Shown piece after piece: positions 7,707 to 49,862 of a DNA stretch of 64,000 nucleotides. Below the pieces are notes generated by a model. The model was not told the origin of the DNA and searched no databases. It saw only the letters and a program-made list of their open reading frames with translations. Source of the DNA: an uncultured candidate division Zixibacteria bacterium (GTDB lineage Bacteria; Zixibacteria; MSB-5A5; UBA10806); the NCBI GenBank assembly GCA_963817915.1, contig CAWFQL010000017.1, positions 416,001 through 480,000 of the forward strand, given 5' to 3'. Made by a program: the position numbers and the translations under genes. How positions within the stretch are numbered: the stretch's first letter is position 1; the number at the start of each line of letters is the position of its first letter.

Positions 7707-7722
7707 CACCAAATTAAATTTA

Positions 7723-8552: not shown

Positions 8553-8563
8553 AATTTTACACC

Positions 8564-10246: not shown

Positions 10247-10422
10247 TTCGCATTATTACACAATAACCATTTATACTTGACATTCACTATTTCGGGGATA
10301 AATTTGTGGCATGTTAATCGACTTGCCAATAATTGGGGAAAAGGAATTAGATGTAAATTGTGATTAAAATACTATTAAAAATGAATAGGGTTTGTACAAA
10401 AATCAATTCAAGGATTATGTAA

Positions 10423-11888: not shown

Positions 11889-11953
11889 CTGAAACTTGGA
11901 TAATGATTTAGTTTTTGAATATTAATAAACATGAGAGGTCGCAAAAATATACT

Positions 11954-12973: not shown

Positions 12974-13039
12974 ATGCCTGTTGTGATTTTATGATAAGGG
13001 ATACAATATTTATTGGTAATTTGGAATAGAGGAGTACAC

Positions 13040-21063: not shown

Positions 21064-21092
21064 TTGACTTAAAATGGCTCTACTCCTATAGT
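21064..21092 (+). promoter_or_regulatory. Sigma70-type promoter for the TonB-receptor operon
   Basis: TTGACT-N17-TATAGT in an AT-rich intergenic region. Confidence 0.6.
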
Positions 21093-21275: not shown

Positions 21276-24218
21276 TTGTTAGTAAAGCCTCTAATCAGGC
21301 TGGCCACGGTCATGCTAATCTTACTGGTTGCAGCGTCAACATGGGCTGGAACAACCGGAAAGATCGCAGGTAAAGTTACTGACAAAACGACAGGCGAGCC
21401 CCTTCCGGGCGTTAATGTCATTATTGTTGGTACTACCGTTGGAGCGGCTACAAACATCCAAGGTGAATTTTTCATAATCAACGTCAGACCCGAAGTTTAT
21501 ACTTTGAAGGCTAGTCTTATCGGCTACAGGCCCGTCGAGGTAAAGAATGTTCAGGTCTCAGTGGATCTCACTACTACAGTTGATTTCCAATTGGGCACCG
21601 AGACAATCGAAATGGGCACTGTCACTGTTGAAGCGGTCAGACCGTTGATAGAAAAAGATATCACCTCTTCAAGAACCACTATTACCCCGTCACAGATTAC
21701 CGATTCTGCCGTCAACGGCATTATCGCTCAATCAAACTTATCCGCGAGTTCAGTACTCGGATCGTTCAGGGGCGGACGCCAGGACAACGGCGAAGTAGTC
21801 TATATGCTTGATGGCGTCAATCTTTCTAATCCGCTCGGCGAATCGCGCGTCGGAAATAACCCTGGCTCAGGGACTACCGCTCTGGCAACTATTATTCCAA
21901 ATGAATCGATTGCCGAAGCCGAAGTCTTATCGGGCGGGTTCGGGGCTGAGTACCCCAGCGTTCAGTCTGGTGTCATTAATATTGTCACCAAAGAAGGCAG
22001 CGATAAGTTTACCGGCAAGATAAAATCCAAATCTTCGCCGGAAGTGCTATTCAAAGGCACATCGAAACTGGACAAGTACAATAGAAATAAATTGTACGAT
22101 ATGAGACAGCATGAATTTGGTTTGAGCGGTCCCATACCGATTTCCAATGTCGATGTTCCCGGAAAACTGTCGTTTTCGGCTTCGGGCGTTTATACTTATG
22201 TTCGTAGCTATCAAGATGAAAGAGCCTGGGAAAAAAGCCAGTCGATGCAGGGTAAGCTGATTTATCAGATTACATCTTCAAAGAAACTGACTTTTTCCGG
22301 TCTCAAATCGTTCGACAACTTTAAGGGCGCGAATAGAAGCAGAATGCTTTATCTCACTTGGGGATCGCCCACGTACTATACAAAGACCAATGTAAATACA
22401 GCTAACAATCAGTTGTATGATACGACGGTCTCATTTACTCCATATGCCTGGATTCTGGCTCCCAATCATACACAGGCTGAAGCCGATACGCTATATTTCC
22501 GCTGGCTGGCCGGTTATACCAATGATACCACCTGGAATCATAGGATTGGCGCCTATACATCAGTGCCGGATAGTTTGTTGAATTTGGGCAGAGATTATAT
22601 TGATAGTCTCTATAATGCCGGTACCGGCTTTGCAAGAAGCTACAGCAATTATGATATGACCCAGACCCTCGGTATGCCCGAAACATGGTCATATTCATTC
22701 GCGGTCAATTTTAATAGCACGATTAGTTCGAAGAGCTATTACGAACTTAGCTTCTCTCGATTCCTGACCGCCCAGAGAGCAAGGGTATACGACCCGTGGG
22801 ACAGACACCCGATGTCGGCGGATCAATTCCTTGATGCGCGCATCGCGGCTCCCCCAGTTTCATCAATCGAATCAAGTCTCCTGTTTGCCAACCCGATGTA
22901 TATTTCCAGATACAGTCAGGATGACCATTCGATTATTAATACCCTCAAGGGTGATTTCACAAGTCAGGTTAATTCATACAACCAGATGAAGATGGGCGCG
23001 GAAGTAAAGTTCTTTGATCTGCTTTATGATTATCGCTCATATGCATCGGGCAACAATGAATACAATTCTCAGTACAACGTGTCGCCTTATCAGATTGGCG
23101 CTTATGCCCAGGATAAGATCGAGACTCAAGGGATGATTGTTAATGTCGGTATGAGATACGATTTCTTCAATCCGAAAACAGTCGTACCATTTAATCCTCT
23201 ACAGCCTTTGAATCCTGGCTTCAGCGATGTTAATGATCCTCGCTACGGCCAGACCTCAGATCTAAATGCCAGATTGAAAGATCCAGTGCCGGCTAAGAAG
23301 AAACAGCAGATTTCTCCGAGAGTGGGAGTCAGCTTCCCGATAACCGAAAATGACGTATTGCACGTCACTTACGGCCACTATTTCCAGTTGCCGGTATTTG
23401 ATGATTTCTACACCAACCATGCATTTGATCTTCGTGGCGCATTCAAATACATCGGAAATCCCAATCTTACCGAGGAAAAAACCGTGTCGTACGAAGCAGG
23501 TATCGAGCATGGCTTTAATGATTACCTGAAATTGGCTGTCACGGGATATTTCAAGGATATTGCCGATTTGGTGAACCACAAGAGATTCATCAATAATCAG
23601 ACTGGCGATATTTTCTGGATTAATACCAATTCCGATTATGCTCGCGTAAAAGGTTTCGAGATTACTTTTACACAGCGTCCATGGCATAATTTCTCAGGTG
23701 TTTTAACCTATACTTACCAGAATGCTATGGGTAAGGCGTCGAATAAGACTCAGGGATTTTTGGACGCCTATTACCAGAGAAAGCCACGTACTGAAGATTT
23801 CCCTCTTGACTGGGATCAACGCAATACTGCGAAGGCCGATATCAATTACAGAATTCCACCTTCAGAAAATGTTATTACTGGAGACTGGGGTCTTGATGTC
23901 GTGTTTACATTCGGATCCGGTGGACCATACTCTAGCGCTACTAACGTCACGCCTCCCAATCTACCTCCTATCAACGACAAGAGAATGCCGAATACATGGC
24001 AAATCGATCTTCGAGTCGATAAGGGCGTCAAAGTATATAAGAACTATACAGTTGATGCTTTCCTTGAGGTTACAAACCTTACTGATCGCGCCAACATCAT
24101 CAATATACTTGACGTACTTAAATACGATATTACCGGATACCCTGCCGGTGCCATCGGAGATCCTTCAGCTTACTCAGCACCAAGAAGAGTACTCTTGGGA
24201 TTGCAGATGACCTTTTAA
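21276..24218 (+). CDS. TonB-dependent receptor with N-terminal carboxypeptidase-regulatory-like domain
   Basis: Signal peptide; GKIAGKVTD..GEPLPGVNV; plug SGGFGAEY..SGVINIVTK; terminal PRRVLLGLQMTF; AAGGAGG RBS. Confidence 0.93.
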   Translation: MLVKPLIRLATVMLILLVAASTWAGTTGKIAGKVTDKTTGEPLPGVNVIIVGTTVGAATNIQGEFFIINVRPEVYTLKASLIGYRPVEVKNVQVSVDLTTTVDFQLGTETIEMGTVTVEAVRPLIEKDITSSRTTITPSQITDSAVNGIIAQSNLSASSVLGSFRGGRQDNGEVVYMLDGVNLSNPLGESRVGNNPGSGTTALATIIPNESIAEAEVLSGGFGAEYPSVQSGVINIVTKEGSDKFTGKIKSKSSPEVLFKGTSKLDKYNRNKLYDMRQHEFGLSGPIPISNVDVPGKLSFSASGVYTYVRSYQDERAWEKSQSMQGKLIYQITSSKKLTFSGLKSFDNFKGANRSRMLYLTWGSPTYYTKTNVNTANNQLYDTTVSFTPYAWILAPNHTQAEADTLYFRWLAGYTNDTTWNHRIGAYTSVPDSLLNLGRDYIDSLYNAGTGFARSYSNYDMTQTLGMPETWSYSFAVNFNSTISSKSYYELSFSRFLTAQRARVYDPWDRHPMSADQFLDARIAAPPVSSIESSLLFANPMYISRYSQDDHSIINTLKGDFTSQVNSYNQMKMGAEVKFFDLLYDYRSYASGNNEYNSQYNVSPYQIGAYAQDKIETQGMIVNVGMRYDFFNPKTVVPFNPLQPLNPGFSDVNDPRYGQTSDLNARLKDPVPAKKKQQISPRVGVSFPITENDVLHVTYGHYFQLPVFDDFYTNHAFDLRGAFKYIGNPNLTEEKTVSYEAGIEHGFNDYLKLAVTGYFKDIADLVNHKRFINNQTGDIFWINTNSDYARVKGFEITFTQRPWHNFSGVLTYTYQNAMGKASNKTQGFLDAYYQRKPRTEDFPLDWDQRNTAKADINYRIPPSENVITGDWGLDVVFTFGSGGPYSSATNVTPPNLPPINDKRMPNTWQIDLRVDKGVKVYKNYTVDAFLEVTNLTDRANIINILDVLKYDITGYPAGAIGDPSAYSAPRRVLLGLQMTF

Positions 24219-24269
24219 TTAATGGCTAAGATTCGAATGATTAGTAATGTTAGGGAGGATTTAAATAAG

Positions 24270-26102
24270 ATGCGAAAAGCAATTTATTGGGGAATAGGCG
24301 GCATCCTGATAACTTTATTTTTATGTATTGTTATCAGTCAGCCTGCCTTGGCCTATGATAAGAGAGTGGCCGAAAATCCCCTTCTGCGTCACAATGGAAA
24401 TGCGCGGCCGACAGTGGTGGAGGATGTCGTATGTAATGTCGGTTACGTTTATAATAGAGTAACCAACACCACCGTGGAAAGCTCGACCGGTACCAATGAC
24501 TGGACCATCCTCATGGGGGATGATGCTTTGATTTTTCCCTCTATGAGAAGGCAGACACCGGCTCAATATGCTGCAATCAATGATTATTTATACTTCGCCA
24601 GTCTTCGTATGGGAAGAGGCGATAAGCTGGTAAAATTCTCGTCCGATACGTCGCCCGGAATTACGGTGACATCCACTTCTACCGACACTACTGCTATCAG
24701 CCTCTTCGATACCTATTTCAAAATATCAGATCAATCGCCTAATGTTTCCGATGCTGATAAAATGGGTATCGAGGTTCATAGCACAACTCATGCCTGGTCA
24801 GAGTCCTACCGTCGTAATTTTATTATTTACGACTACTGGATTCTGAATCTCAACTCGACGCCAATGGATTCATTCTTCGTCGGATTTCACGCCGACTGCG
24901 ATATTTCCGTTGCAGAGGGCGGTTCAGGCGTACAGGCCTATAGTATCGACGACTTGGTTGACTATTACCGCGACGATGTTACCGGGGAATATATTTCCTA
25001 CATGTTGGATGGTGACAACCCCAACGTTCCCGGCGATGACACCGGTGGCAATAAGATTCCCAAGGAATCCACTGGCTACATAGGTTCCAGGCTTCTCTAT
25101 TGTCCCCCTGTTATGGGAAGCTCAACCCCGTCGGTTCAATCGGGTCATGCATGGTGGGATTGGAACTCAGATCCAGCCGCTGATGCCGATTGGATGCGTA
25201 TCTTGACAGACGGTCAATGGCTGTCAAGGCCGCCGTCGGTCCACGATTATCGCTTCTTCCAGAAGCTCGGACCGTTTTCAATACCTGGTAACGACTCCAT
25301 CAGATGCCTCTATGCTTTCGGCGTAGGTGAAGGCCTGGCCGGATTGAGAACTGACCTGGGATGGGCTGCTACCCTTTTCCAACATAATTGGGTTGGCCCG
25401 TCTGCTCCGACTCCGCCCGGATACACATTAGCCCCAGGTGATCGACAGGTTGAAATCACTTGGAATACGATAGCCGAAACAACTCCCGACCAGGCAACTG
25501 GCGTGATCGATTTTGAAGGCTATAGGGTATGGCGCGCTACTGGCGCTTCCGGAAACTGGACATTGCTTATGGAATGCGATCTGGTTGATGACGTCGGTCA
25601 TAATACTGGTCTTGTCCATTCTTATCTCGATAACGATGTCAACAATGGATTCCAATACAGATACGTTGTTACCGCCTATGATAAGGGCGATCCGGCAAAC
25701 AATATCGAATCGTTTGAATCCGGAAAGGGCAACTTTCAGTTAGCAGAGCCTGGCCGTTTGGATTATACTCCGAATGCTGCCAAGACCGGAATTCATGTCG
25801 CGCCCAATCCCTTTGTAATGTCTTCGCCGCTCGGCTATGGCTTTACGCCTTCTATTACCAATCCGTCGCAGGAGAGAATCTCATTCGTGAACCTGCCGAA
25901 GGATGCCGACGCTACCGTCACAATCTACACTTTGACTGGTGATGAAATTATAAAGCTGACCAAGATATTCAACGAAACACGCGTCGATTGGGATCTGATT
26001 ACTAAGAAGACACAGAAGGTTGTGGCAGGCGTTTATCTATACGTTGTCGAATCGCCGGCCCTTAGTAAGAATCACATCGACAAATTTATGATTGTCCGCT
26101 AA
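24270..26102 (+). CDS. Secreted protein with Fn3-like domain and T9SS-type C-terminal sorting domain
   Basis: Signal peptide; DFEGYRVWR..YRYVVTAYD; IHVAPNPF...WDL.TK..QKVVAGVYLY..KFMIVR C-terminus. Confidence 0.75.
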   Translation: MRKAIYWGIGGILITLFLCIVISQPALAYDKRVAENPLLRHNGNARPTVVEDVVCNVGYVYNRVTNTTVESSTGTNDWTILMGDDALIFPSMRRQTPAQYAAINDYLYFASLRMGRGDKLVKFSSDTSPGITVTSTSTDTTAISLFDTYFKISDQSPNVSDADKMGIEVHSTTHAWSESYRRNFIIYDYWILNLNSTPMDSFFVGFHADCDISVAEGGSGVQAYSIDDLVDYYRDDVTGEYISYMLDGDNPNVPGDDTGGNKIPKESTGYIGSRLLYCPPVMGSSTPSVQSGHAWWDWNSDPAADADWMRILTDGQWLSRPPSVHDYRFFQKLGPFSIPGNDSIRCLYAFGVGEGLAGLRTDLGWAATLFQHNWVGPSAPTPPGYTLAPGDRQVEITWNTIAETTPDQATGVIDFEGYRVWRATGASGNWTLLMECDLVDDVGHNTGLVHSYLDNDVNNGFQYRYVVTAYDKGDPANNIESFESGKGNFQLAEPGRLDYTPNAAKTGIHVAPNPFVMSSPLGYGFTPSITNPSQERISFVNLPKDADATVTIYTLTGDEIIKLTKIFNETRVDWDLITKKTQKVVAGVYLYVVESPALSKNHIDKFMIVR

Positions 26103-26122
26103 TTGTGGAGGTAAGAGATAAA

Positions 26123-27139
26123 ATGAGAAAGATTCTAATACCAGCGGTTCTGTTGGCCATTCTGGGTCTCTGCCTTCCGGCTAATGCTCAGTTTGCCAAG
26201 GTCGGCACCGTCGGTTTAAAATTCCTTGATATTGGTGTCGGCGGCAGGGCCCTTGCCATGGGCGAAGCCTATGCGGCAGTCGCCAACGACGCTTCGGCTA
26301 TTTTCTGGAATCCGGCTGGCATCGCCAACGTTAAGTCGGGCGATTTCTTCGCTGGATATACAAAATGGCCGGCTGAAATAAATCTATATTCCGCAGCATT
26401 CGTAAAGAAGACGAGTTTTGGCCATTTAGGTGGTTCATTTACGATCCTAAATACCGGCTTGATGAATCGCACATCTTTTTATGATAATGATGGCGATTTC
26501 GGAGGCACTTTCGCATACGAAGATTGGGCCGCGGGCTTGTCTTATGCCACCTATTTGACCGACAAATTCGCCTTCGGAGCGACCTTTAAGCTTCTTAAGG
26601 AGAAATTGGCCGAATTCGATAAGACCGGATGGGCAGTTGATATCGGTACCTATTACGATACCGGATTTAAATCGCTCCGCATCGGATTTGCGATTCTCAA
26701 TTTCGGCCCTGATATGAAATATGACATTCCCAATGTCGACGGCGATCCTAACGGCTACGCCGATGGGCTGGATAATAACGGCGATGGCTTCGTGGATAAT
26801 AAAGTCCCGGGCACTGCTGTTCCGCTGCCTTTGACTTTCAGGGCAGGTGCTGCATTTGAAGTTTTGCAGACCGAAAACTCCAAAGCCACTATTTCCGCTG
26901 AGCTTATGCATCCTTCCGATAATAAGGAAAGATACAATTTCGGCGGCGAATACTGGTTCCAGAATATGCTCGCTATCAGAGCAGGCTGGAAGCTTAACGC
27001 CGATGAAGGCGGATTCACAGCAGGCGCCGGATTCAAGCTACCTGTGGGGACATTTGGCGATGCCTCTATAGATTATGCTTTTAGTGATCTCGGTAAACTC
27101 AAAGGAGTACATCGCGGCTCCTTTAGCATAGCATTTTAA
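26123..27139 (+). CDS. PorV/PorQ-family outer-membrane beta-barrel protein
   Basis: FLDIGVGGRALAMGEAY.A.ANDASAIFWNPAG signature; terminal HRGSFSIAF. Confidence 0.88.
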   Translation: MRKILIPAVLLAILGLCLPANAQFAKVGTVGLKFLDIGVGGRALAMGEAYAAVANDASAIFWNPAGIANVKSGDFFAGYTKWPAEINLYSAAFVKKTSFGHLGGSFTILNTGLMNRTSFYDNDGDFGGTFAYEDWAAGLSYATYLTDKFAFGATFKLLKEKLAEFDKTGWAVDIGTYYDTGFKSLRIGFAILNFGPDMKYDIPNVDGDPNGYADGLDNNGDGFVDNKVPGTAVPLPLTFRAGAAFEVLQTENSKATISAELMHPSDNKERYNFGGEYWFQNMLAIRAGWKLNADEGGFTAGAGFKLPVGTFGDASIDYAFSDLGKLKGVHRGSFSIAF

Positions 27140-27167
27140 CAACAACGCCAATTAAGGAGGAAATGAA

Positions 27168-28856
27168 GTGAACTCTTTTAAAATTCCGATCCTGTTCTTG
27201 GTGGGATTGTTGGCGTTGGGACTCATCATGGTTGGCGGATGTGCCAAAAAAGCTCAGGCGCCCAATGAAAACGTGGCCGCCGAAACTTTTATCACAACCT
27301 ACCATGTTGATATCGCACCCGATTCCGCTACGTACTACTTTGTTACCGTCTTTTGGAAATATTCCGATAAGGATGGTGAAGCATTAGAATATCGATATTG
27401 GACTAATGTCGACACGGCAAAAGTCAGAACATTCGATACAACAGTACGCCTCAGGTTTAATTTCCCTGATGCCAATACTGTAGATACATTCTATGTAGAA
27501 GCCCGCGATAATCGCGGAGTCTACGACTCGTCACCGGCCTATACCGCTATTTCCCCTGGTGGAGATAGAAATCTTGCCGAATTTTCGCCAGAAACCAATG
27601 TGATCAATTTTACCAATGGTATTCTCACGTCGGCCGGAATCAACGTAACATTCTCAGGCAGCGATATTGATGGTATAGTGCGCACTTATCAATATATGCT
27701 TGACACCGATACCCTTTGGAGAAGCGTAGACAATGACCCTGTTTCGAATACCGCGACTTTGGTCATTGATAGCATCCCACTGGGTGCGCGCACTCTGGCC
27801 GTAAGGGCGACAGATAATCTCGGACAATTAGATCGTTCACCGGCTGAAGTTAGCTTCGTGGTGGTCGATACATTGCGTCCGGATTTGTCAGTCACAGCCG
27901 GTGCAATTCCTAATGCGTTCTATTTCCTGCCGCAGGGTGGTACAAGCACCAGCGTCGCGACTACCTGGTCGGCCGACGCATCCTGGTATTACAGCACTTT
28001 GACCTATCATTTTGCGGTAGACGACACATCCACATGGTCGGCATGGCAGGAAGCTACTTCCACAGTGTTGGAGGGCCTGGGATCAGGCACGCACAACTTC
28101 TATATCGAAGCCAGGGACCTCGCCGGAAATAAGACACTCTATTCTACCACATTTGGAGTTGGAGCGTTCGTCGGTGATAGAGGCATCCTGTTAATTAATG
28201 GAATTGATTGGCCTACCTATCCTGAAGCCGTTACGATGTACGAAAATCATGCCTTATGGGGCAGCCATAACGTTAAGTTTTGGGATTTAATGCCTCATAG
28301 TGGAGCATATCCGCCGGTTCTTGATTCGATTAAAGTAGGCACCAATGGTGCGGTTCCCGGTGATTCGCTCAAATATTATAGCACGGCACTGTTTGCAATG
28401 AATGGTTATGGCGGCGACGACGCTGTATGGAATTCAATGCAACCATTGATTGAGTCGTACCTCAACGCAGGCGGCAAAGTGCTTTTGGCTTCCCGCTACG
28501 CGACTTTATTCATCAAAGGCAATTTGCTGACTTATGGCCTGACTGGCGGATCCTTGGAATTTAATGAAGTTGGAGTCAATCCAGCCGGTTTGATAGCTGT
28601 AGCTCCCGGCTTAATCAATCAACCTAGGACGTCTAGCATTTCATTAACCGATCTTCTGGCAATTCCAACTGACCCTAATGTCACCATACTATTCAATGCC
28701 ACTGGCTATTCAAATTCCGTTGGCGGGATTCTTATTACACCAGCCTCAGGTGGCAAATTCGGATTTGTGGCCGGAAGAACCTATAGATTTAATTTTACCG
28801 CCGAAGCCGCGAACTACGATACGTTGTTGGCACGGTACTTCGGGGAAACAAATTAA
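27168..28856 (+). CDS. Lipoprotein with Ig-like repeats and a C-terminal alpha/beta domain
   Basis: Lipobox VGGC; repeated FYVEARD/VRATDN/FYIEARD Ig-like strands; YLNAGGKVLL. Confidence 0.75.
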   Translation: MNSFKIPILFLVGLLALGLIMVGGCAKKAQAPNENVAAETFITTYHVDIAPDSATYYFVTVFWKYSDKDGEALEYRYWTNVDTAKVRTFDTTVRLRFNFPDANTVDTFYVEARDNRGVYDSSPAYTAISPGGDRNLAEFSPETNVINFTNGILTSAGINVTFSGSDIDGIVRTYQYMLDTDTLWRSVDNDPVSNTATLVIDSIPLGARTLAVRATDNLGQLDRSPAEVSFVVVDTLRPDLSVTAGAIPNAFYFLPQGGTSTSVATTWSADASWYYSTLTYHFAVDDTSTWSAWQEATSTVLEGLGSGTHNFYIEARDLAGNKTLYSTTFGVGAFVGDRGILLINGIDWPTYPEAVTMYENHALWGSHNVKFWDLMPHSGAYPPVLDSIKVGTNGAVPGDSLKYYSTALFAMNGYGGDDAVWNSMQPLIESYLNAGGKVLLASRYATLFIKGNLLTYGLTGGSLEFNEVGVNPAGLIAVAPGLINQPRTSSISLTDLLAIPTDPNVTILFNATGYSNSVGGILITPASGGKFGFVAGRTYRFNFTAEAANYDTLLARYFGETN

Positions 28857-28922
28857 TTTAGCGAGTGAACTATGTCGGTGAATTCGCTTTTATACCGAAA
28901 TAGTAAAAGGAGAAAAATAGAA

Positions 28923-30383: not shown

Positions 30384-30405
30384 ACCTTCGCCGATTCCGA
30401 GAAAC

Positions 30406-30442
30406 AAGCCCGCCCGCCACAACGGCGGACGGGCTTTATTTT
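30406..30442 (+). terminator. Intrinsic terminator-like hairpin
   Basis: AAGCCCGCCCGCC-ACAAC-GGCGGACGGGCTT followed by TATTTT. Confidence 0.8.
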
Positions 30443-30445
30443 AAA

Positions 30446-39883: not shown

Positions 39884-39895
39884 ATAATAATTGTA

Positions 39896-41571: not shown

Positions 41572-42751
41572 TTTCCAAATTTCTCAATTTAGTATTTATA
41601 TCGACCGACGCCTTCGTCAATACTTCCCGCGCTGTCCCATGGCCGTACATGGCAGCTTCGATCGCATCCTCGATATCTTGTTCGATATCGATCCATATCG
41701 GCGTTGGCGGAGTTGCTCTCGAATTCCGAAGCTGCTGCGCCATTATTCGCTGCTCAGGATCGCTGATTGTGAGATCATTATATGGCGGAAATCCGAACCC
41801 GGCGGCATCGCATAACCTTTGCGAATTTTCTTTCGATGTCAGAAATTCGGCCAATTTTTTCGCCATCTCCATCTTTTTTGATTTTGCGTAAACCGCGATA
41901 TATTCGCCGCCGAAGAACGATGTTCCTGTTCCGCCGCCTGAACGAAAAATCGGAACCAATCGATATTTAAAATCAGGAGGTGTCTTTTTCAATCTCCTCA
42001 GAAGCCATCCACCGGAGATTACGAATCCGACCTTCCCTTCACGAAAATATTCTTCTATTCTCGATTGACTCTCAATTATTCCGCAGTGACATAGATCAAG
42101 GTAAAAATCAAGCGCGCCCACCGACTCTTTGGTATCGAGTGCGGATATTTTATTATCTTCGCTCAATATCTGGCCGCCATTGCACCATAGAAACGGTAAA
42201 AACTTTTTATACAACCTGTGTTTTTCGGCAGAATTGCTTCCAAAACCAAAACATTCATCTCCCAAAAGATCAATTTTACGGCAAGCCTTGAGCAATTCCG
42301 GCCAATCGTTAGGAGTCTTAATTTTCGCTTTCTGAAGCAGATCAATATTGAAATAGAATATTCTCGAATCAAGCATCCAGGGCAGCGCATAAAGCTTTTC
42401 ATTCCAAACTGCGGGGTAGAGATAGTTTTCCGGCAAATCCGATTCAAATTCGGTCAAAAGTCCGTTCGATGAAAATTGCGCGATCCAATCTGAACCCAAT
42501 TCCATCACATCTGGCGGAGCCTTGGCCGCGAATGATATTACAAGCTTGTCTTGTCCGTTGGCCCATGTTAAGTCGGTTATCTCTACTTTTGTGCCGGGGT
42601 TTGCCAATTCAAATTCCGCTATCAACTGCTCAATTACCGGTTTTGTGTTGATATCCGACCAGAATTGCCAGAACCTGATGGCATTCTCATCCTTTCTCGG
42701 AATCGAACAGCTTAATAGCAAAACCGCGAGGACAAAAAATACCTTTCGCAT
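41555..42751 (-). CDS. Carbohydrate ABC transporter substrate-binding lipoprotein
   Basis: Lipobox LLSC; PPDVMELG, YALPW..D.R..YFN, F.EGKVGF...GGW family 1 SBP patterns. Confidence 0.9.
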   Translation of the reverse strand: MRKVFFVLAVLLLSCSIPRKDENAIRFWQFWSDINTKPVIEQLIAEFELANPGTKVEITDLTWANGQDKLVISFAAKAPPDVMELGSDWIAQFSSNGLLTEFESDLPENYLYPAVWNEKLYALPWMLDSRIFYFNIDLLQKAKIKTPNDWPELLKACRKIDLLGDECFGFGSNSAEKHRLYKKFLPFLWCNGGQILSEDNKISALDTKESVGALDFYLDLCHCGIIESQSRIEEYFREGKVGFVISGGWLLRRLKKTPPDFKYRLVPIFRSGGGTGTSFFGGEYIAVYAKSKKMEMAKKLAEFLTSKENSQRLCDAAGFGFPPYNDLTISDPEQRIMAQQLRNSRATPPTPIWIDIEQDIEDAIEAAMYGHGTAREVLTKASVDINTKLRNLENETAK

Positions 42752-42758
42752 AGATTTG

Positions 42759-42788
42759 ATTTTATCTTCAATACATATCGCTTGTCAA
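42759..42788 (-). promoter_or_regulatory. Sigma70-type promoter of the sugar ABC operon, probably leaderless
   Basis: Minus strand TTGACA-N18-TAAAAT with 7 nt between the -10 box and the ATG at 42751. Confidence 0.55.
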
Positions 42789-42805
42789 GCGCAAGCTCAG
42801 GATTT

Positions 42806-42849
42806 GTAGGTCGGGTTCCGAGTCAGCTATGCTGACGAGAAACCCGACA
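42806..42849 (+). repeat. GTAG-type REP-like palindrome; related copy at 50318-50365
   Basis: GTAG-GTCGGGTT..GTCAGC-TAT-GCTGAC..AACCCGAC nested hairpin. Confidence 0.75.
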
Positions 42850-42878
42850 AACTGCTAATTCTCCAAAATATATTAACC

Positions 42879-42907
42879 TTGACATAAATTTATACTACGC
42901 CTACAAT
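42879..42907 (+). promoter_or_regulatory. Sigma70-type promoter of the four-gene membrane operon, probably leaderless
   Basis: TTGACA-N17-TACAAT with 8 nt before ATG 42916; no SD. Confidence 0.65.
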
Positions 42908-42915
42908 CGATTTTA

Positions 42916-44046
42916 ATGAAGAAACTCTGGCTGATATCCTGTTTTTGTCTTCTTATATGCAATTCCATCATGGCATTCGATCTTCATATCTCCGATCAGC
43001 CCAACGATGATGGCTCCGCGCTGATAATAAAATGGGATAAACTTCCGCCCGCCGATTTGAAAGACAAAAATCCGCCAATCTACAATCTCGAACGAAGCCT
43101 TAGACCCGATTCAGGATTCTCATTTGCCTCATCAATATTAAGAGATGATTCTTCGCTGACAACAACTGACAAGGGCCTATCCAACAAGCTGAAATATTAT
43201 TATAGACTGTCTTATATTGATTCAACAATTTCCTGGCATTCGAACACAGCCGGGCCAGTCACTCCAAAGGAAAATTGGTATAATACCGACCGCTCTAACG
43301 TCCTTATAGGGATTATTATAACCGGGGCATTGGTGGCCTTTTTTATTGCGCTCGGCAAAAGAGGCAAGATGCTTTACCTGAGGCCAATCGCCGGACTCCT
43401 TGCGGTCGATGAGGCCATTGGCCGTGCTACTGAGATGGGCAAGCCGATTCTATATTCGTCCGGCCGCGGCGGTATGCAACGTCCCGCCTCTATTGCCAGC
43501 ATGAATATATTCGGCTCAGTCGCCGAGAAGGTCGCTACCTATGGGACACCTTTGATATTCCCCAACAACGACCCGGTAGTCATGGCAGTGGCGCAGGAAG
43601 TCGCCCGAGAGGGGTATACTCGAGCCGGTCATCCCGATGCCTACAATCCTGAAAATATCTATTTTGTCACTGATAGTCAGTTCGGTTATGCCGCCGCTGT
43701 AGATGGTATAATGATGCGTGAAAAACCTGCCACGAATCTTTTCTTCGGGACTTTCGAAGCCGAATCATTGATTCTCGCCGAAACCGGGAACTCCATTGGA
43801 GCTATCCAGATCGCCGGAACCGATTCATCTATTCAAATGGCGTTTTTTATGGTGGCGTGCGATTATGTTTTGATAGGGGAGGAGCTCTTTGCGGCGTCTG
43901 CATATCTTTCCGGCGATCCGCAGGTTGTTGGCTCTCTCAAAGGTTCCGATATATCGAAAATAATAATCATCGCATTGCTGATAATTGGTACGATTTTGGC
44001 ATTCATCGGGATTGCCTGGTTCGTGAATCTATTTATTACGGTTTAG
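42916..44046 (+). CDS. Membrane protein: signal peptide, Fn3-like domain, TM, DUF6754-like alpha/beta domain, TM
   Basis: DQPNDDG..IKW..YYYRL Fn3-like part; LRPIAGL.AVDEAIGRATEMGKP, QIAGT, CDYVLIGEELFAASAYL. Confidence 0.7.
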   Translation: MKKLWLISCFCLLICNSIMAFDLHISDQPNDDGSALIIKWDKLPPADLKDKNPPIYNLERSLRPDSGFSFASSILRDDSSLTTTDKGLSNKLKYYYRLSYIDSTISWHSNTAGPVTPKENWYNTDRSNVLIGIIITGALVAFFIALGKRGKMLYLRPIAGLLAVDEAIGRATEMGKPILYSSGRGGMQRPASIASMNIFGSVAEKVATYGTPLIFPNNDPVVMAVAQEVAREGYTRAGHPDAYNPENIYFVTDSQFGYAAAVDGIMMREKPATNLFFGTFEAESLILAETGNSIGAIQIAGTDSSIQMAFFMVACDYVLIGEELFAASAYLSGDPQVVGSLKGSDISKIIIIALLIIGTILAFIGIAWFVNLFITV

Positions 44047-44049
44047 AGA

Positions 44050-44667
44050 ATGAGAAGATCTGTTCCGATAATTGTTTGTCTTGGAGTCGGCCTCGCTATG
44101 CTGATCCAGTTTTTTATTCCCTCCAAGTTATCGCGCAATGTTTATAATGAAGTCACCGATTGGGCGCAGATAGTCTATGCATTTGCATTAATTGTAGGTG
44201 TTTTCGGCTTGATGAAATATCATTCGGGCAAGATTACCCGACGCGATAACGGTTGGATTTATAATCTTATCACGCTTCTGGCCTTGTTCATGATGGCCTT
44301 TCTCGGATTTGCCTTAGGCAGGAAAGACAATAGCCCATTTATGTGGATATTCAATTTTGTACAATCACCGATGCAGGCGTCAGTCTTTTCGCTTTTGGCA
44401 TTCTTTGTGGCATCGGCTGCGTATCGGGGATTCATGGCGCGCAATACCGAAGCTGTTTTATTGCTATTATCCGCCGTATTCATAATGTTTGGAATCGCTT
44501 CGGTTGGCAATTCGATACCTCCATTTTCAGATATCGCCAATTGGATTCTGATGAATCCCTCGATGACTGCTCGCCGCGGTATATATATAGGTATTGGATT
44601 AGGCACAATTGCCACCGCTCTCAGGGTTATCCTCGGTGTCGAACGGACCTATCTGGGGAAAGAATAA
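44050..44667 (+). CDS. Integral membrane protein of unknown function (about 6 TM)
   Basis: Hydrophobic helices; SLLAFFVASAAYRGF and RGIYIGIGLG.IATALRVILG.ERTYLG. Confidence 0.75.
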   Translation: MRRSVPIIVCLGVGLAMLIQFFIPSKLSRNVYNEVTDWAQIVYAFALIVGVFGLMKYHSGKITRRDNGWIYNLITLLALFMMAFLGFALGRKDNSPFMWIFNFVQSPMQASVFSLLAFFVASAAYRGFMARNTEAVLLLLSAVFIMFGIASVGNSIPPFSDIANWILMNPSMTARRGIYIGIGLGTIATALRVILGVERTYLGKE

Positions 44668-45492
44668 ATGAATTTCTGGGATAAAATTCGGCATTTGGAT
44701 CGACGAATCATTTTCATCCTTATGGCGTTGGGTGTTACTCTTCCGCTTCTTGTAAATATAGGCCTGCCGGTTCGCATCACCCCCGATGTTCAAAATATTT
44801 ATGATTATATTAATGGCTTAAAGCCGGGGGATGTTCTGATAATTTCATACGATCATGATACCGGAACACTTCCCGAGATGGTCCCTATGTCCACCGCTAT
44901 CTTGCGTCACGCCTTTTCCAAAAATTTGCGCCTAATAGGCATGGCTCTCAATGCCGAGGGTGCTGCAATCGGCAGACAGGCTTTCAGACGAGTCGGAGCC
45001 GAATTCAATAAGGAAGAGGGGATTGATTTCGCCTTTCTCGGTTACCGTCCGGAGATTACCGCCGCAGTTATGGGGATGGGAACTTCAATTCAACGAGTCT
45101 TCCCCAAGGATGATCGCGGTATTCCCGTGGATGAAATACCTCTAATGAAGACAGTCCACAACTACAATGATATCTCATTGGTTGTATCAGTCGCTGACGC
45201 CGATGCGCCCGTTTATTGGGTTAATTATGGCAATGCCCGTTTTCAGGTCAAGGTTGCCCCTGCTGTGACTGCGGTGATGGCCACTACTTTCTTTCCATTC
45301 ATTGATTCACATCAGGTGATAGGAATGATAGCCGGTCTCAAGGGCGCCGCTGAATATGAAAGATTGATTAAAAAGACGGAAGCCGCCAGCAGAGGCATGG
45401 ATGCTCAGTCGATTGCCCATCTTGTCGTAATAGGATTTATTCTTGTCGGCAATATAGCATTCTTCATGGGGCGAAAGCAGGGGAAGGGATAA
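44668..45492 (+). CDS. Membrane-anchored protein of unknown function (TM, alpha/beta domain, TM)
   Basis: N- and C-terminal TM helices; GLKGAAEYE..MDAQSIAHL motif. Confidence 0.75.
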   Translation: MNFWDKIRHLDRRIIFILMALGVTLPLLVNIGLPVRITPDVQNIYDYINGLKPGDVLIISYDHDTGTLPEMVPMSTAILRHAFSKNLRLIGMALNAEGAAIGRQAFRRVGAEFNKEEGIDFAFLGYRPEITAAVMGMGTSIQRVFPKDDRGIPVDEIPLMKTVHNYNDISLVVSVADADAPVYWVNYGNARFQVKVAPAVTAVMATTFFPFIDSHQVIGMIAGLKGAAEYERLIKKTEAASRGMDAQSIAHLVVIGFILVGNIAFFMGRKQGKG

Positions 45493-45495
45493 GAA

Positions 45496-46194
45496 ATGGA
45501 TTTTCATTTCATATTCGATTACTTGATCGCCTCTGAAAGACTGGGAATCTGGATCGCGGCCTTAATGACGCTGGCGATCTATTCCTTCCTATATAAAGAC
45601 AACCCCATCTACCGATTTGCCGAAAGCATTTTAGTGGGAATATCGGTAGGATATCTTCTCGTCACGACATTCCAGACCACCATTATGCCCCAGGCTATGG
45701 ATCCGCTTGTCTTCAGTTTCAAAAATATATTCACGCCCGGAGAATCAGGTGGCATCGGGCTTTTCGTAATGGCCGCCCTGCCGATTATCCTCGGGCTTTT
45801 GATGTTCGCTCGATTTGTGCCCAAATTCACCTGGCTTTCCAGGGTTGCGCTTGCATTCTATATAGGCTTCGGCGCGGGCGCCTCGATTCCCGCCAATATG
45901 CAGTCCCAGATATTAAAGCAAATCGAGGCTACTATACGCCCATTCCTTGGCATTCACGGCTTTATGCCGATTCTAAATGCAATCTTAATCCTGGTTGGGC
46001 TGATTACGACACTATTCTATTTCTATTTTTCCAAAGCCCATACCGGCCTATTCGGCAAGGCCGCCAAATTGGGCACATTTTACCTGATGATATTCTTTGG
46101 TGCGACGTTCGGATATACCGTCATGGCCCGTATCTCGCTTCTCATTGGCAGAGTCACATTTCTGCTGAGAGATTGGTTGGGTCTGATTTCGTAG
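45496..46194 (+). CDS. Integral membrane protein of unknown function (6-7 TM)
   Basis: SFLYKDNPIYRFAE, LMIFFGATFGYTVMARISLLIGR. Confidence 0.75.
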   Translation: MDFHFIFDYLIASERLGIWIAALMTLAIYSFLYKDNPIYRFAESILVGISVGYLLVTTFQTTIMPQAMDPLVFSFKNIFTPGESGGIGLFVMAALPIILGLLMFARFVPKFTWLSRVALAFYIGFGAGASIPANMQSQILKQIEATIRPFLGIHGFMPILNAILILVGLITTLFYFYFSKAHTGLFGKAAKLGTFYLMIFFGATFGYTVMARISLLIGRVTFLLRDWLGLIS

Positions 46195-46248
46195 ATTTCT
46201 ATTAATCTATTTTATGATAGAAAGACAAAATATAATAGGAGGTTGGTC

Positions 46249-48004
46249 GTGAAATTAGGATTTTTGACCATTATTCTTTTGGTCTTAACTATAGCATGTG
46301 AAAAGGTTGAAATGAACGCATGGGATCAAGTTAAGTTGCCCGGAAGCTATTCTGATTCTCACATATTATCGATCGACATCAAAGATAAGGAAATTTTATT
46401 GGGCACATATGGTCGAGGGGCATTATTCACCACGGATAATGGCCAAAACTGGGTATCTTATGACACAACCAAAGGTCTATCGTGGGATTTCATAATGGGT
46501 GGGGCATGGGACAAGAACTACTTCATTCTGGCTACCCTCGGAGATGGTGTCAATATTTCCGAAGATAAGGGCAAAACCTGGAAACGATACGGCTTCGATT
46601 TCTTCAAGCTCGAATATCTCTACACAGTCGGCGTAAAAATCCAAAATGGCAAAAGATATGTCCCCACTGCCGACGGCCTCGTCGTATTTGATAATATCCA
46701 AAACTGGCAAGGCTTGACCGAAAAAAATGGTTTGCCGTCTCAGTATATTTATAAAATGAAAATATCCGGCGATACTATCGCCATCGGTACGCTTCATGGC
46801 TTTTCTATCTCCACCGATTTAGGCGCGAATTGGAAAAATTCCTCTCCAAATGGCAAATACACAGCCGAAAAATCCTCCGCCTGCAAGGTGCGGGCGGTGG
46901 AATTTGCCGGCAATAATATCTATGCCGGATGCGATGACGGCCTCTATTATTCTCCGGATTTTGGCTCGACCTGGCAGCAAATCGGCCAGAATAATCTGAA
47001 AAGCAATTTTATTCATGATCTTGTCTGGGATCAGGATGGCAATCTTATGGATTGCGACATACAAAGAAATCACCAAATATAACCCAGCTAATTCGCAATG
47101 GCAGATATTCGATGAAAAAAGTGGCCTTCCCGGCGGAAGCATCAATTGTCTGGCATTGGGCAGAAAAGGTGTCGTTTACGCCGGTACCAATTACGGTCTT
47201 TATAAGCTCAACCACGGCCCTGCGATCGAACCGAAATCCGAGCCTGTCGATGCCGAATTCACCGAGACAGAGACTCCAATTCACCAATGGCTCCTGCGCC
47301 CTGTTGCCCCCGAAGAACAGAATTGCAAAGACCAAACCTACCTTTACGGTTCAACCATGGGCGGCAATTTCCGCCAGCATCAGGGAAATGAATACAATAA
47401 TCCAGAGGGAGTACCGCTACTCGCGGTTGATGATGGCGAGATAATCTATACCGAACCACCAATCGGCTTTACGATTCTTAAATGCAATACGAAAATGGAA
47501 GGCAAAGATATCTACGCCCACTACCATCATCAATTTGAAATCCTTAAAAAAGTCGGAGATAAAGTCAAAAGGGGAGATATAATCGGCTCAGTCGGCAAGA
47601 AGGGCAATGTAACCAATGAGCACCTTCATTTCGAAATCGGCATGTCTGCCAACGATTCCCAGAAGGAAGTCCCGACTCAAACCCGCAATTCCGAGCTTTG
47701 GGTCGCGCCGTTGGCGGGATGCGGCACGATTGTCGGCAATCTTGTTGATAAGGATGGCAATCCGGTTCAGGGCGCTCGCATTTACGGAGTCACCAAACCG
47801 GTGCCCTCAGAGACTCCTTTCTCGTTCGCTGAGACTTACAAAGATAAAGCCCATCCCGATAATTGGTACAATGAAAACTTCGCCATTGGCGATGTTCCCG
47901 AAGGCGATTACGTGTTGTATTGTCATAATGGCGACTTGAAATCGCGGATCAAGGTCCATGTCGATGCCGGCAAATTCACGAAAGTGAAAATGATCTTGAA
48001 ATGA
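46249..48004 (+). CDS. Lipoprotein: beta-propeller repeats, M23-family peptidase domain, carboxypeptidase-regulatory-like domain (+1 frameshift near 47045)
   Basis: Lipobox TIAC; S.D.G.TW (BNR/Asp-box) repeats; HQGNE, VGDKVKRGDIIG.VG, HLHFEI. Confidence 0.82.
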
Positions 48005-48065
48005 TTTGGAACCGTATTTGACCATTACCTGTTAATCATGGACAGAAAGTGTCTTCATTTATTAG

Positions 48066-48200
48066 ATGTTTTGCCGAAAATGTAAAAAGAAGATGGAAGA
48101 AGAGAAGCGAAGCTTCCATAAAAGACGAAAATGGATTTGCCCGAAATGCGGTTCTGTAAGATTCCAACAGGCTAAGATCGATGTTGGCAAACGCAGGTAA
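48066..48200 (+). CDS. Putative 44-aa zinc-ribbon microprotein (two CxxC)
   Basis: MFCRKCKKKMEEEKRSFHKRRKWICPKCGSVRFQQAKIDVGKRR*; below the ORF-track size cutoff; overlaps the DUF72 start. Confidence 0.6.
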   Translation: MFCRKCKKKMEEEKRSFHKRRKWICPKCGSVRFQQAKIDVGKRR

Positions 48201-48975
48201 AATCATAGTGGGAACATCCGGTTATTCATTCGATGATTGGGCTGGCGTCTTTTATCCGCCAGATCTTCCAAAGGGGAAACGTCTTGATTTCTATAAAGAG
48301 CATTTCAATGTCACCGAAATCAATTCGACCTATTATCGCATTCCACATCCGGCGGTATTCTATAATATCGCGAAAAAAGTTGGTGATAATTTCGAATTCA
48401 TGATCAAGACTCATCGCAGCTTCACTCATGACCGAAGGGATCTCAAAAAGCAATGCCAGCTTTTTAATGATTCCATCAGACCGATGACAGATTCGGGCAA
48501 ATTAAAGGGACTCATGGCTCAATTCCCATTCAGCATAAAATTTACAAAGGCCAATCTTGATTACATTATCAATGGCAAGGATTTTTTCCCCGGCCATAAT
48601 CTTTTCGTCGAATTTCGCCACGATAGCTGGGATATCCCCGAAGTCTATGATTCATTGGCGAAAAATGACATCGGGGTTTGTTCGGTCGATGAGCCACAGC
48701 TGCCCGGCCTTTTTCCTCCGAAACCGATTGCGACCACAAATATCGGCTATGTCCGGCTTCATGGACGTAATTCTGCCAACTGGTGGGGCGGCGAAGGCGA
48801 TCGATATGACTACATGTATTCGGAAAATGAATTAAAAGAGTGGAAAGATAAAATTGATCTCTTGAAAAAAAATACGGATAAGTTATATTTGTTCTTTAAC
48901 AACTGCCATTTGGGGCAGGCTGTTAGAAATGCTAAAATGTTTTTGGACATGATTCAAACGGAAATGACGCAATGA
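48181..48975 (+). CDS. DUF72 (YecE-like) family protein
   Basis: VGTSGY...W...FYP, EINSTYY, QFP, VEFRH, YVRLHGRN, RYDYMYS, FNNC. Confidence 0.92.
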   Translation: MLANAGKIIVGTSGYSFDDWAGVFYPPDLPKGKRLDFYKEHFNVTEINSTYYRIPHPAVFYNIAKKVGDNFEFMIKTHRSFTHDRRDLKKQCQLFNDSIRPMTDSGKLKGLMAQFPFSIKFTKANLDYIINGKDFFPGHNLFVEFRHDSWDIPEVYDSLAKNDIGVCSVDEPQLPGLFPPKPIATTNIGYVRLHGRNSANWWGGEGDRYDYMYSENELKEWKDKIDLLKKNTDKLYLFFNNCHLGQAVRNAKMFLDMIQTEMTQ

Positions 48976-49862
48976 AAAAATTCTGGAAAAAAATACTGTT
49001 CTATGTGTTGGCCATCTGGACTGTCACCGCGGTTTATACTGCGATAGCCAATAATCGCCGCTCTGAAAGCATTCGCTTTCAAGAGAAACCGGCGACCTTC
49101 CAACTGCTTCTTGATAGCGTCAATCCATCCAAACTTCCCAAAATAAGCGCCAAATCGGCAATATTAGTTGATCTCGATAGCGGCAATGTTCTTATGAAAA
49201 AAGATGAACTGGAAACAAGACCGATAGCCAGCCTTACCAAGCTCGCGACTGCGCTTGTTTTCCTTAATACCGCTCCCGATTTTCTTAAAGTCGAAACTGT
49301 AACTCAGGAAGATCGCGAAGGCGCTGGAAGGTCTCGTTTGTATAAAGGCGAAAAAGTTACTGTTTATGATCTTTTCCACTTGATGCTGATATGCTCTGAC
49401 AATGTCGCCGCGCGTGTCGTCGCCAGATCGACCGGCATGACCACCGAGCAATTCGTCGCCAAAATGAATGAGCTTGCGTCAAGCCTGAATCTTGCCAATA
49501 CCCATTTTGCCGATCCCACCGGCCTCGATCCCAATAATGTTTCCACAGCCGCAGAACTTGCTATCATCTTTAAATCCGCTCTCGAACAAAATTTCATTGC
49601 TGAGGCTATCTCGAAAAAGAATTTCTCATATAGGGCTGTCAACGGCGAACGGCTCTTCACAATATATAATACCAATCGCCTGCTCTTCGGACGAAATGAA
49701 ATCATCGGCGGCAAAACCGGATACATCAAAGAATCCGGCTACTGCCTGGCTCTCGGTATTGAGGATGTCGATGGCAGAAAATTAGCCGCAGTCCTCCTCG
49801 GTGCCCCTACCAGCGGATATCGTTTCCGCGACGCCGCCAAACTCATGGCCTCAGTAGAGTAA
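48972..49862 (+). CDS. S11-family D-alanyl-D-alanine carboxy/endopeptidase (PbpG/DacA-like)
   Basis: PIASLTK (SxxK), SDN, DPTGL, GKTGY; N-terminal TM or signal. Confidence 0.92.
   Translation: MKKFWKKILFYVLAIWTVTAVYTAIANNRRSESIRFQEKPATFQLLLDSVNPSKLPKISAKSAILVDLDSGNVLMKKDELETRPIASLTKLATALVFLNTAPDFLKVETVTQEDREGAGRSRLYKGEKVTVYDLFHLMLICSDNVAARVVARSTGMTTEQFVAKMNELASSLNLANTHFADPTGLDPNNVSTAAELAIIFKSALEQNFIAEAISKKNFSYRAVNGERLFTIYNTNRLLFGRNEIIGGKTGYIKESGYCLALGIEDVDGRKLAAVLLGAPTSGYRFRDAAKLMASVE

Follow-up and report, generated by a model that had tools for sequence, protein, structure and literature searches.

A conserved Zixibacteria gene cluster that may couple a SusD-less outer-membrane uptake module to stem-peptide catabolism

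We analysed a 64,000-nucleotide stretch of DNA (the window) from an uncultured candidate division Zixibacteria bacterium (GenBank assembly GCA_963817915.1, contig CAWFQL010000017.1, positions 416,001 to 480,000). The window is G000:C17:416001-480000 in our numbering, G000 being its own genome, whose 22-contig assembly totals 3.33 Mb at 93.9% completeness. At 21276-49862 the window holds genes for a TonB-dependent receptor module, murein hydrolases and enzymes of stem-peptide breakdown. Our best explanation, which we put at about even odds (a probability near 0.5), is that this block is a conserved Zixibacteria supra-operon that would import peptidoglycan fragments through a SusD-less unit, cut them with murein hydrolases and break down the stem peptides by a ykfABC-type route. 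Gene content, compartment signals, conserved linkage, the fold of the receptor's partner protein and the predicted docking of that partner's tail on a neighbouring barrel were all obtained directly; the substrates and the direction in which material would flow are, without exception, inferred from them. It is very likely that turnover products of the cell's own wall pass through these enzymes too.

Families were assigned with Pfam and NCBIfam profile searches (26 open reading frames, ORFs, screened; Pfam at E 0.01), and N-terminal signals were judged by eye from the translations. All gene families named at 21276-49862 by the first-pass annotation, which had proposed a peptidoglycan-utilisation locus, were found, and the ORF limits fit that span, from the receptor start at 21276 to the end of the S11 gene at 49862 (Table 1). 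If the C39-like gene is taken to start at 35069, the fourteen co-directional genes that fill 21276-39883 are nowhere more than 62 bp apart. The importer genes converge on this 14-gene operon and the genes from DUF6754 to S11 diverge from the importer. A signal peptide or lipoprotein signal is present on the receptor, the 626-aa partner, the PorV-like barrel, both lipoproteins, DacB, the amidase, the substrate-binding protein (SBP) of the importer, the DUF6754 protein, the BNR protein and the S11 protein. LysA, Alr, the NlpC/P60 protein, LdcA and the epimerase have none, confirming the division into exported and signal-less proteins that had been described earlier.

Synteny was studied by tblastn with the window proteins over 40 kb around the YkfC ortholog in ten relatives, and later in further genomes and in 20 Zixibacteria loci from the C39_2 alignment. 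The gene for the enolase-superfamily L-Ala-D/L-Glu epimerase-like enzyme (AEE) was directly followed by the Amidase_3 ortholog in all 17 assessable genomes (families f1, f2, f3, f4, f5, f7, f9, f11 and f13), and ten families show this order when the window's own genome is included. A YkfC ortholog lies in the cluster in 16 of the 17, G024 being without it, and a convergent ABC importer was found 3' of the core in 11/16 assessable genomes. In f1, f5 and f7, though not in f2, the importer is succeeded by the DUF6754 module. DUF72 and S11 genes come after it in G013 (f1), G035 (f5) and G037 (f7), and S11 alone was detected in G026 (f5). Because it is conserved across families, the gene clustering is well beyond chance.

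The receptor module is more restricted. Of 121 class genomes, 20 encode an ortholog of the 626-aa partner (E <= 1e-40), and every one of these belongs to f1, f2 or f3. The module is on the same contig as the core and within about 12 kb of it in 12 of these 20 (G000, G001, G003, G004, G005, G007, G014, G017, G019, G021, G022 and G024) and apart from it in two (G006 and G016). Six were not judgeable, with the two parts on different contigs or the core unmatched (G002, G010, G015, G018, G020 and G033). Linkage in related genomes had been set beforehand as the test that could refute the proposal, and linkage was found both within the core and between core and module. The module stays beside the core though the intervening genes vary, with DacB and LysA missing from locus L044 and DacB and YkfC from G024. 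In G013, which lies outside that sample and is also split, the module sits about 330 kb from the core together with DacB and LysA as a seven-gene block; the flanks of the relocated blocks of G013 and G016 are unrelated genes.

In family f5 (G026 and G035) a different TonB-dependent receptor, a 1016-aa protein and a PorV-like barrel form a set directly upstream of YkfC. In the PorV tree the f5 barrel falls outside the eight-member ortholog clade (clade support 99/100), its exact place being amid long branches and open forks. We describe this module as different or very diverged and do not claim that it was independently acquired, since the tree cannot place its barrel among the G000 paralogs. 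Taken together, the variable intervening genes, the joint move of DacB and LysA in G013 and the different f5 module at the same junction favour function rather than mere inheritance as the reason for the linkage.

The first-pass annotation had likened the block to a polysaccharide utilisation locus (PUL) lacking a SusD partner, and this layout stood. Receptor orthologs in relatives are 45-63% identical. The SusC/RagA profile TIGR04056 matched the receptor at residues 29-276 only (51.2 bits against a cut-off of 368.25), and no SusD family was matched by any of the 26 ORFs. The gene adjoining the receptor instead encodes a beta-rich supersandwich protein of 626 aa, itself in no Pfam family at E 0.01. 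Its relatives are from uncultured bacteria only. An AlphaFold2 model (30-row alignment; mean predicted local distance difference test, pLDDT, 81.1) gave a galactose-mutarotase-like supersandwich at residues 45-378. Foldseek comparison of the whole model with the Protein Data Bank (PDB) returned low template-modelling scores of about 0.3, and a domain-level VIA search was used instead. In that search the supersandwich aligned with 9ju0 (Z 19.7; root-mean-square deviation, rmsd, 3.2; 257 residues aligned) and with the N-domain of glucodextranase 1ulv (Z 19.3; rmsd 2.9; 232 aligned).

The C-terminal tail of the partner (residues 547-612) resembles type IX secretion system (T9SS) sorting domains, with sub-threshold matches to CHU_C (E 0.015) and Por_Secre_tail (E 0.12). 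Shorter paralogs carry PF18962, and one ortholog, P0045, is named 'T9SS type A sorting domain-containing protein' by its source. G000 also encodes a SprA-like translocon (SprA_N 115 bits, above cut-off, C12:122105-123340) and numerous other T9SS-tailed proteins. When the PorV-like barrel and partner residues 375-611 were predicted as a complex, the score was 0.88 against 0.00 for the best control. Of 157 solved complexes 116 reach this mark, as do 2 of 215 mismatched pairs, counts that apply only roughly here because the alignments were our own. Three runs shared at least 80% of contacts, partner pLDDT was at least 76 and the interface lay on residues 501-611; a pass of this kind may reflect memory if a similar complex has already been solved. 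The tail is thus predicted to dock on the adjoining barrel, and because of this predicted docking we read the receptor module as a probable SusD-less capture unit made of a partner with a T9SS-like tail and its own PorV-like barrel.

The two lipoproteins of the module belong to no named family. Language-model feature neighbours of the 562-aa protein are unnamed Ignavibacteriota/Fidelibacterota clusters (0.98) and DUF4960 of Bacteroidota (0.91); these, like the neighbours of the 503-aa protein, are leads only. A paralogous relation between the two was considered and dropped (pairwise BLASTP E 0.24). Three further receptor modules occur in G000, each beside unrelated genes, the pattern expected if each has its own substrate.

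Downstream of the module lie the genes that would connect it to stem peptides. The closest solved relatives of the YkfC-like protein by sequence are 3npf, 3h41 and 3pvq. PDB matches of the epimerase were 3iji (1.3e-68), 3jva, a 'Dipeptide Epimerase' (1.9e-51), and 1jpm, an 'L-Ala-D/L-Glu Epimerase' (4.1e-50). LdcA is a single ORF of 316-340 codons in 5/5 relatives. Tandem YkfC genes were seen in some genera (L006:932-1690 in G013; L001/L002 in G003); one copy of the G013 pair has a lipoprotein-type signal and the other is signal-less, pointing to one step carried out in both periplasm and cytoplasm. G000 has a second SH3b and NlpC/P60 gene at C12:475858-476633 (L026:7862-8630), 37-51% identical to the locus copy, as two ORFs with a stop between them; its neighbours are fatty-acid and two-component genes. 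The lysA gene of the complete genome G006 matches in two pieces 1.45 Mb apart (G006:C1:738129-738608, residues 1-160, and 2193513-2194412, residues 120-419), which reflects either a breakpoint of a rearrangement, a remnant of a duplication or a join made in assembly.

The exported hydrolases would, by family, act on peptide and amide bonds. The model of the 581-aa amidase (pLDDT 73.5) has a catalytic domain like that of CwlV (VIA Z 22.2, rmsd 2.2, 167 aligned), an AMIN-like domain at 287-390 resembling that of PilQ 3jc8 (Z 12.7, rmsd 2.2, 100 aligned) and Ig-like domains. Its catalytic domain has 171 residues for 173 profile positions. The second Amidase_3 of G000 has 215 residues, carries a regulatory insertion, is matched by AmiC/AmiA in one stretch and adjoins murI. 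From these models and profiles, the copy next to murI is probably the AmiC-type division amidase and the locus copy of the unregulated type.

The C39-like peptidase that had been described was present, although its start moved to 35069, adding an N-terminal membrane anchor, and the gene is frameshifted near 35306. The hydrophobic N-terminal extension was found in 9/9 relatives (77-94 codons), and Cys154, His249 and Asn265-Asp266 are invariant across nine sequences. A 234-bp 'gap' 5' of the ORF was ruled out as a regulatory region, being the frameshifted 5' part of the gene. The protein matched no PDB sequence. Planctomycetota often encode C39_2 homologs that are full-length, the N-domain among the parts matched, at about 30% identity (L049-L108, most of them from this phylum), at loci where tblastn with the window proteins detected no murein partners. 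Homologs from Elusimicrobia adjoin a YkfC-like gene in seven loci (L077, L082, L084, L092, L096, L100 and L101), four of which also have Amidase_3. The M23 lipoprotein likewise held as to family and lipoprotein signal, not as a separate gene: in G006 and G013 BNR and M23 are a single lipoprotein ORF of 579-587 codons. The DUF72 and S11 genes overlap at stop and start codons (window 48181-49862; L006, L120, L123) and are kept as a pair in f1, f5 and f7; we know of no link between DUF72 and wall metabolism.

For the inner membrane, the sugar ABC importer was borne out in its permeases and SBP, and the locus has no ATPase gene for it. PDB sequence matches of the SBP are general CUT1 sugar binders, none of which points to a ligand. 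The DUF6754 protein matched only an fn3-like chain among PDB sequences (E 0.81) and the 274-aa membrane protein matched none. Three paralogous copies of the DUF6754 module lie on G000:C12 (about 153.5-156.8, 178.0-181.1 and 181.4-184.7 kb); one precedes proteins with TPR and TonB_C domains and another a transglutaminase-like protein. The module is probably not murein-specific.

Table 1. Features of the locus and its control-like sites (window coordinates)
Feature	Position	Strand	Details
Sigma-70-like promoter match	21064..21092	+	TTGACT-17-TATAGT, 10/12; in 348-bp gap upstream of receptor gene; consensus match only
TonB-dependent receptor, N-terminal CarboxypepD_reg, 980 aa, signal peptide	21276..24218	+	PF00593 3.1e-26; PF13715 5.4e-20
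626-aa secreted partner	24222..26102	+	Supersandwich ~45-378, fn3-like domain, putative divergent T9SS C-terminal sorting domain
PorV/PorQ-family outer-membrane barrel, predicted holder of partner tail	26105..27139	+	NF033709 213.9 bits vs cut-off 90
Lipoprotein, 562 aa, lipobox ...MVGGC, no named family	27168..28856	+	
Lipoprotein, 503 aa, lipobox ...IMSGC, weak Ig-like matches	28872..30383	+	
PBP4/DacB-type DD-carboxypeptidase/endopeptidase (S13), signal peptide	30446..31897	+	TIGR00666 265.9 vs 107.8; sole genome copy
Diaminopimelate decarboxylase LysA, cytoplasmic	31898..33178	+	TIGR01048 473.7 vs 297.9; sole genome copy
Alanine racemase Alr, cytoplasmic	33175..34293	+	TIGR00492 318.8 vs 168; sole genome copy
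YkfC-like gamma-D-Glu-diamino-acid endopeptidase, no signal peptide	34260..35069	+	SH3_16 + NLPC_P60
Peptidase_C39_2 cysteine peptidase, membrane-anchored	35069..36209	+	ATG overlaps YkfC stop codon; frameshifted near 35306
LD-carboxypeptidase LdcA (S66)	36197..37140	+	Three ORFs here via two frameshifts; Peptidase_S66 + S66C
Enolase-superfamily dipeptide (L-Ala-D/L-Glu) epimerase-like enzyme (AEE)	37134..38141	+	MR_MLE domains
Exported 581-aa amidase	38138..39883	+	Ig-like domains, AMIN-like ~287-390, Amidase_3 without regulatory insertion
CUT1-type sugar ABC importer	39896..42751	-	Two BPD_transp_1 permeases + lipoprotein SBP (SBP_bac_1)
Divergent control region	42752..42915	.	Two promoter-like matches, 11/12 each: + 42879-42907, - 42788-42759
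Four-gene membrane module	42916..46194	+	DUF6754 protein + membrane proteins of 205, 274 and 232 aa
Lipoprotein, BNR/Sortilin-type propeller + C-terminal M23 peptidase	46243..48004	+	Split by frameshift ~47015-47082
DUF72 protein, cytoplasmic	48181..48975	+	Travels with S11 gene in f1, f5, f7
S11 low-molecular-weight penicillin-binding protein (PBP)	48972..49862	+	Best match PRK11669, DD-endopeptidase; sole genome copy
Terminator-like hairpin	50246..50269	+	9 pairs, 6 G-C; 3' of last gene; consensus match only

These parts can be assembled into the following putative pathway. The 626-aa protein would be exported by the type IX system, its tail staying on the PorV-like barrel beside the receptor and the two surface lipoproteins. 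This assembly would catch soluble peptidoglycan fragments, which the receptor would carry to the periplasm. There PBP4/DacB would open cross-links and trim D-Ala, and the unregulated AMIN-bearing Amidase_3 would free stem peptides from N-acetylmuramic acid (MurNAc); additional cuts may be made by the C39-like peptidase, the BNR-M23 lipoprotein and the S11 PBP. For the glycan part, the CUT1 ABC importer is a possible way in. In the cytoplasm LdcA would remove the terminal D-Ala, the YkfC-like enzyme would cleave the bond between gamma-D-Glu and meso-diaminopimelate (mDAP), the epimerase would turn L-Ala-D-Glu into L-Ala-L-Glu, and LysA and Alr would convert mDAP to L-Lys and D-Ala to L-Ala.

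We also checked the murein metabolism of the genome as a whole. In G000, at 93.9% completeness, no match was found to Amidase_2/AmpD (PF01510), GH3/NagZ (PF00933) or AnmK (PF03702), and the best score for Mpl (TIGR01081) was 207 bits against a cut-off of 388.7. A recycling route of the E. coli type is thus not evident, and stem peptides are probably broken down rather than re-ligated. MurQ is present at one locus elsewhere, in a neighbourhood with no MurNAc-utilisation operon. It appears three times in the assembly and is counted as one locus because the contig ends of C16 (446713-454093), C20 and C21 overlap at 94-97% identity, probably as strain variants or unresolved assembly bubbles. Four SLT domains were found in the genome. 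No muramidase or glucosaminidase family was found in the genome and NagA scored under its cut-off. No evident pathway would thus break down the murein sugars, and the apparent target of the locus is the stem peptides rather than murein as a whole. The earlier term depolymerisation therefore applies to peptide and amide bonds and not to the glycan, the locus having no glycosidase.

Several results weigh against the import reading. The synteny comparison relied on tblastn with window proteins only, and relatives are non-independent samples. The core stands without an adjoining receptor module in f4, f7, f9, f11 and f13 and in genera g3 and g9, the module is separable from the core in g3 and g9, and in G016 the five-gene module is alone among unrelated genes. 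The carbohydrate-binding-type fold of the partner indicates neither function nor ligand. The epimerase falls under every NCBIfam equivalog cut-off, its top match being the N-acetyl-D-Glu racemase DgcA (221 against 400). For the peptide route over the inner membrane the locus offers no more than candidates, the DUF6754 module being one. No glycoside hydrolase or lyase family occurs among the 26 locus ORFs, although unnamed proteins could hide one, as the fold searches in the locus took in parts of the amidase and, of the 626-aa protein, residues 45-378. Nor was a muramidase or glucosaminidase family found in G000 (GH3, GH20 and GH73 not found, NagA as above). LysA, Alr, DacB, S11, LdcA, the epimerase and the importer are all single-copy. 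The genome is 93.9% complete, also has DapF, and carries LysA, Alr and the two PBPs as its only copies; these enzymes must therefore work for the cell's own wall and for lysine synthesis too, and cannot be dedicated to catabolism. At the level of sequence, fragments from other cells and from the cell itself would be equivalent sources.

The main rival is that the enzymes form a housekeeping murein cluster for maturation and recycling of the cell's own wall and for D-Ala and lysine supply, with an unrelated receptor module inherited alongside. We regard this as a serious possibility, though a somewhat unlikely one. It accommodates the single-copy LysA, Alr, DacB and S11, the presence of DapF, the many families whose core has no receptor module, the movable module, the G000 paralogous modules beside unrelated genes, and an AMIN-like domain on the amidase as in septal AmiC. 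It does not readily explain why two types of receptor module sit at the same position upstream of the core (f1-f3 against f5), why the module is co-directional with the enzymes at gaps of at most 62 bp, or why in g3 it took DacB and LysA along. A separate AmiC-type amidase next to murI is available for division, and no Mpl was found in G000, so the peptides would not be re-used as such.

A bolder form of the import reading is that the locus is dedicated to necromass. Peptidoglycan from other cells would be imported and its D-amino-acid stem peptides mined for carbon and nitrogen, the conserved four-protein DUF6754 complex would be a new inner-membrane transporter of the released peptides or muropeptides, and the whole would be the first machine of receptor, T9SS binder and PorV barrel with an assignable substrate. 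We hold this to be doubtful. An uptake locus for some other glycan-peptide or D-amino-acid polymer, such as other envelope debris, with the enzymes working on look-alike bonds, is improbable. The generic nature of the partner's supersandwich, the likeness of the SBP to general CUT1 binders and the sub-cut-off DgcA match of the epimerase would fit it, but the joint conservation of LdcA, YkfC-type NlpC/P60, Amidase_3 and PBP4, families that each act on peptidoglycan-specific bonds, is hard to explain otherwise than by murein. Very improbable is an attack system whose exported hydrolases lyse neighbouring bacteria whilst the rest consumes the spoils: DacB, amidase, M23, S11 and C39-like proteins do share one block and the amidase is without the self-inhibiting insertion, but the hydrolases are equipped with a membrane anchor or with signals of the usual Sec or lipoprotein kind, no T9SS tail occurs on any of them, nothing suggests that they leave the periplasm, and DacB and S11 are the only low-molecular-weight PBPs found in G000.

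Several locus genes are broken in this assembly, namely the C39-like gene, ldcA (twice) and the BNR-M23 gene; were they genuine, this strain would have an interrupted pathway, a further point against the import reading. LdcA, named in the first-pass annotation, is present here only in pieces. The window has six frame breaks in 64 kb, in DUF1015 (16452-17697), tuf, C39_2, LdcA (twice) and BNR-M23. Both copies of tuf (EF-Tu), at window 53785-54997 and 16 kb further downstream at G000:C17:485646-486855, are frameshifted. Because both copies of this essential gene are broken, we read the locus breaks as assembly indels and not as decay. The assembly indel rate is probably about one per 10 kb, and the genes are probably intact in the organism.

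Control signals were scanned for in two stretches. Promoter-like sites numbered 58 against 41.1 +/- 7.5 in shuffles in the first and 38 against 23.5 +/- 4.5 in the second; terminator-like sites numbered 22 against 18.9 +/- 4.3 and 19 against 11.1 +/- 3.4. The scans are near background overall, so that sites at gene starts and ends are weak hints. This includes the two 11/12 sigma-70-like matches inside the 164-bp divergent gap, the best of their stretch. The locus block has no regulator gene. Rfam at gathering thresholds gave five tRNAs only, at 52.7-55.2 kb, with no match inside the locus. Upstream, window 1583-14413 encodes a fused SBP-permease and an ATPase for amino acids, a 1046-aa M1 peptidase, asparaginase II, a beta-eliminating lyase and an S8 subtilase with a FlgD_ig-type tail. 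This run of protein and amino-acid catabolism genes is consistent with a peptide-feeding lifestyle. A row of Mur ligase homologs, probably the dcw cluster, lies at G000:C17:368898-377454, about 40 kb upstream of the window and not adjoining the locus.

Much of the bacterial necromass of sediments and soils is considered to be peptidoglycan, and we know of no described mechanism for its uptake over the Gram-negative outer membrane. Operon linkage of a receptor module to enzymes whose families indicate one substrate class, the stem peptides, gives the module a testable ligand. If the import reading is true, it supplies a concrete ligand hypothesis for a SusD-less uptake module in phyla related to Bacteroidota, marks out Zixibacteria as likely consumers of cell-wall peptides and yields a set of genes by which necromass turnover could be recognised in metagenomes. 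If not, the block would still serve as a well-conserved map of how an uncultured phylum metabolises murein peptides.

Our searches of the full-text literature open without journal subscription returned neither a described locus in which stem-peptide catabolism is coupled with a TonB-dependent receptor nor a paper on how Zixibacteria use peptidoglycan. In the excerpts available from PMC6365825 and PMC10809760, Zixibacteria are mentioned only among taxa with exported peptidases or carbohydrate-active enzymes. Peptidoglycan recycling of the E. coli and Caulobacter types is summarised in the available part of PMC13046382. The Zixibacteria locus is like the E. coli type in having LdcA and in a periplasmic amidase and PBP4 that would feed the pathway, and unlike it in that the AmpD, NagZ and AnmK families and an above-cut-off Mpl were not found in G000. 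In Tannerella forsythia, ampG-murTKQ scavenges environmental muropeptides and MurNAc, for which the organism is auxotrophic; the word 'TonB' is absent from the accessible text of that paper (PMC5388701). The two systems would be alike in using peptidoglycan fragments made by other bacteria, as proposed here. The Tannerella operon, as described there, handles the sugar through AmpG and MurT/K/Q, whereas the Zixibacteria locus appears peptide-directed and has an outer-membrane receptor.

The Bacillus subtilis ykfABCD operon reportedly encodes a murein-peptide pathway of LD-carboxypeptidase, L-Ala-D/L-Glu epimerase and YkfC endopeptidase. Like it and like BT1313/BT1314 of Bacteroides, the Zixibacteria locus clusters an S66 peptidase, an enolase-superfamily dipeptide epimerase-like enzyme and an SH3b-NlpC/P60 protein. 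Unlike such pathways, it places them in a 14-gene operon with the receptor module, DacB, LysA, Alr, the C39-like peptidase and an exported amidase, and the ABC importer that accompanies this operon is of the sugar type, not of the peptide type. The chain of reactions of these three enzymes has been proposed for wall recycling in Bacteroides and YkfC activity described, as far as the text available from PMC4600125 goes; the YkfC orthologs there are predicted to be extracellular, whereas LdcA, the epimerase and the YkfC-like enzyme of the locus are without signal peptides. With the SusC/SusD PULs of Bacteroidota the locus shares a TonB-dependent receptor, putative surface capture proteins and compartment-sorted enzymes. 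It differs in having no SusD-like protein, glycoside hydrolase or regulator, in a receptor far under the SusC/RagA cut-off and in a partner with a T9SS-like tail and its own PorV-like barrel. That a PUL layout can serve a non-polysaccharide polymer is seen in ddbABCDEF, presented as a PUL-like DNA-utilisation locus in the portion available of bioRxiv 10.1101/2025.03.18.642099. The Zixibacteria locus would thus be a combination of known kinds, ykfABC-type peptide catabolism and PUL-like uptake.

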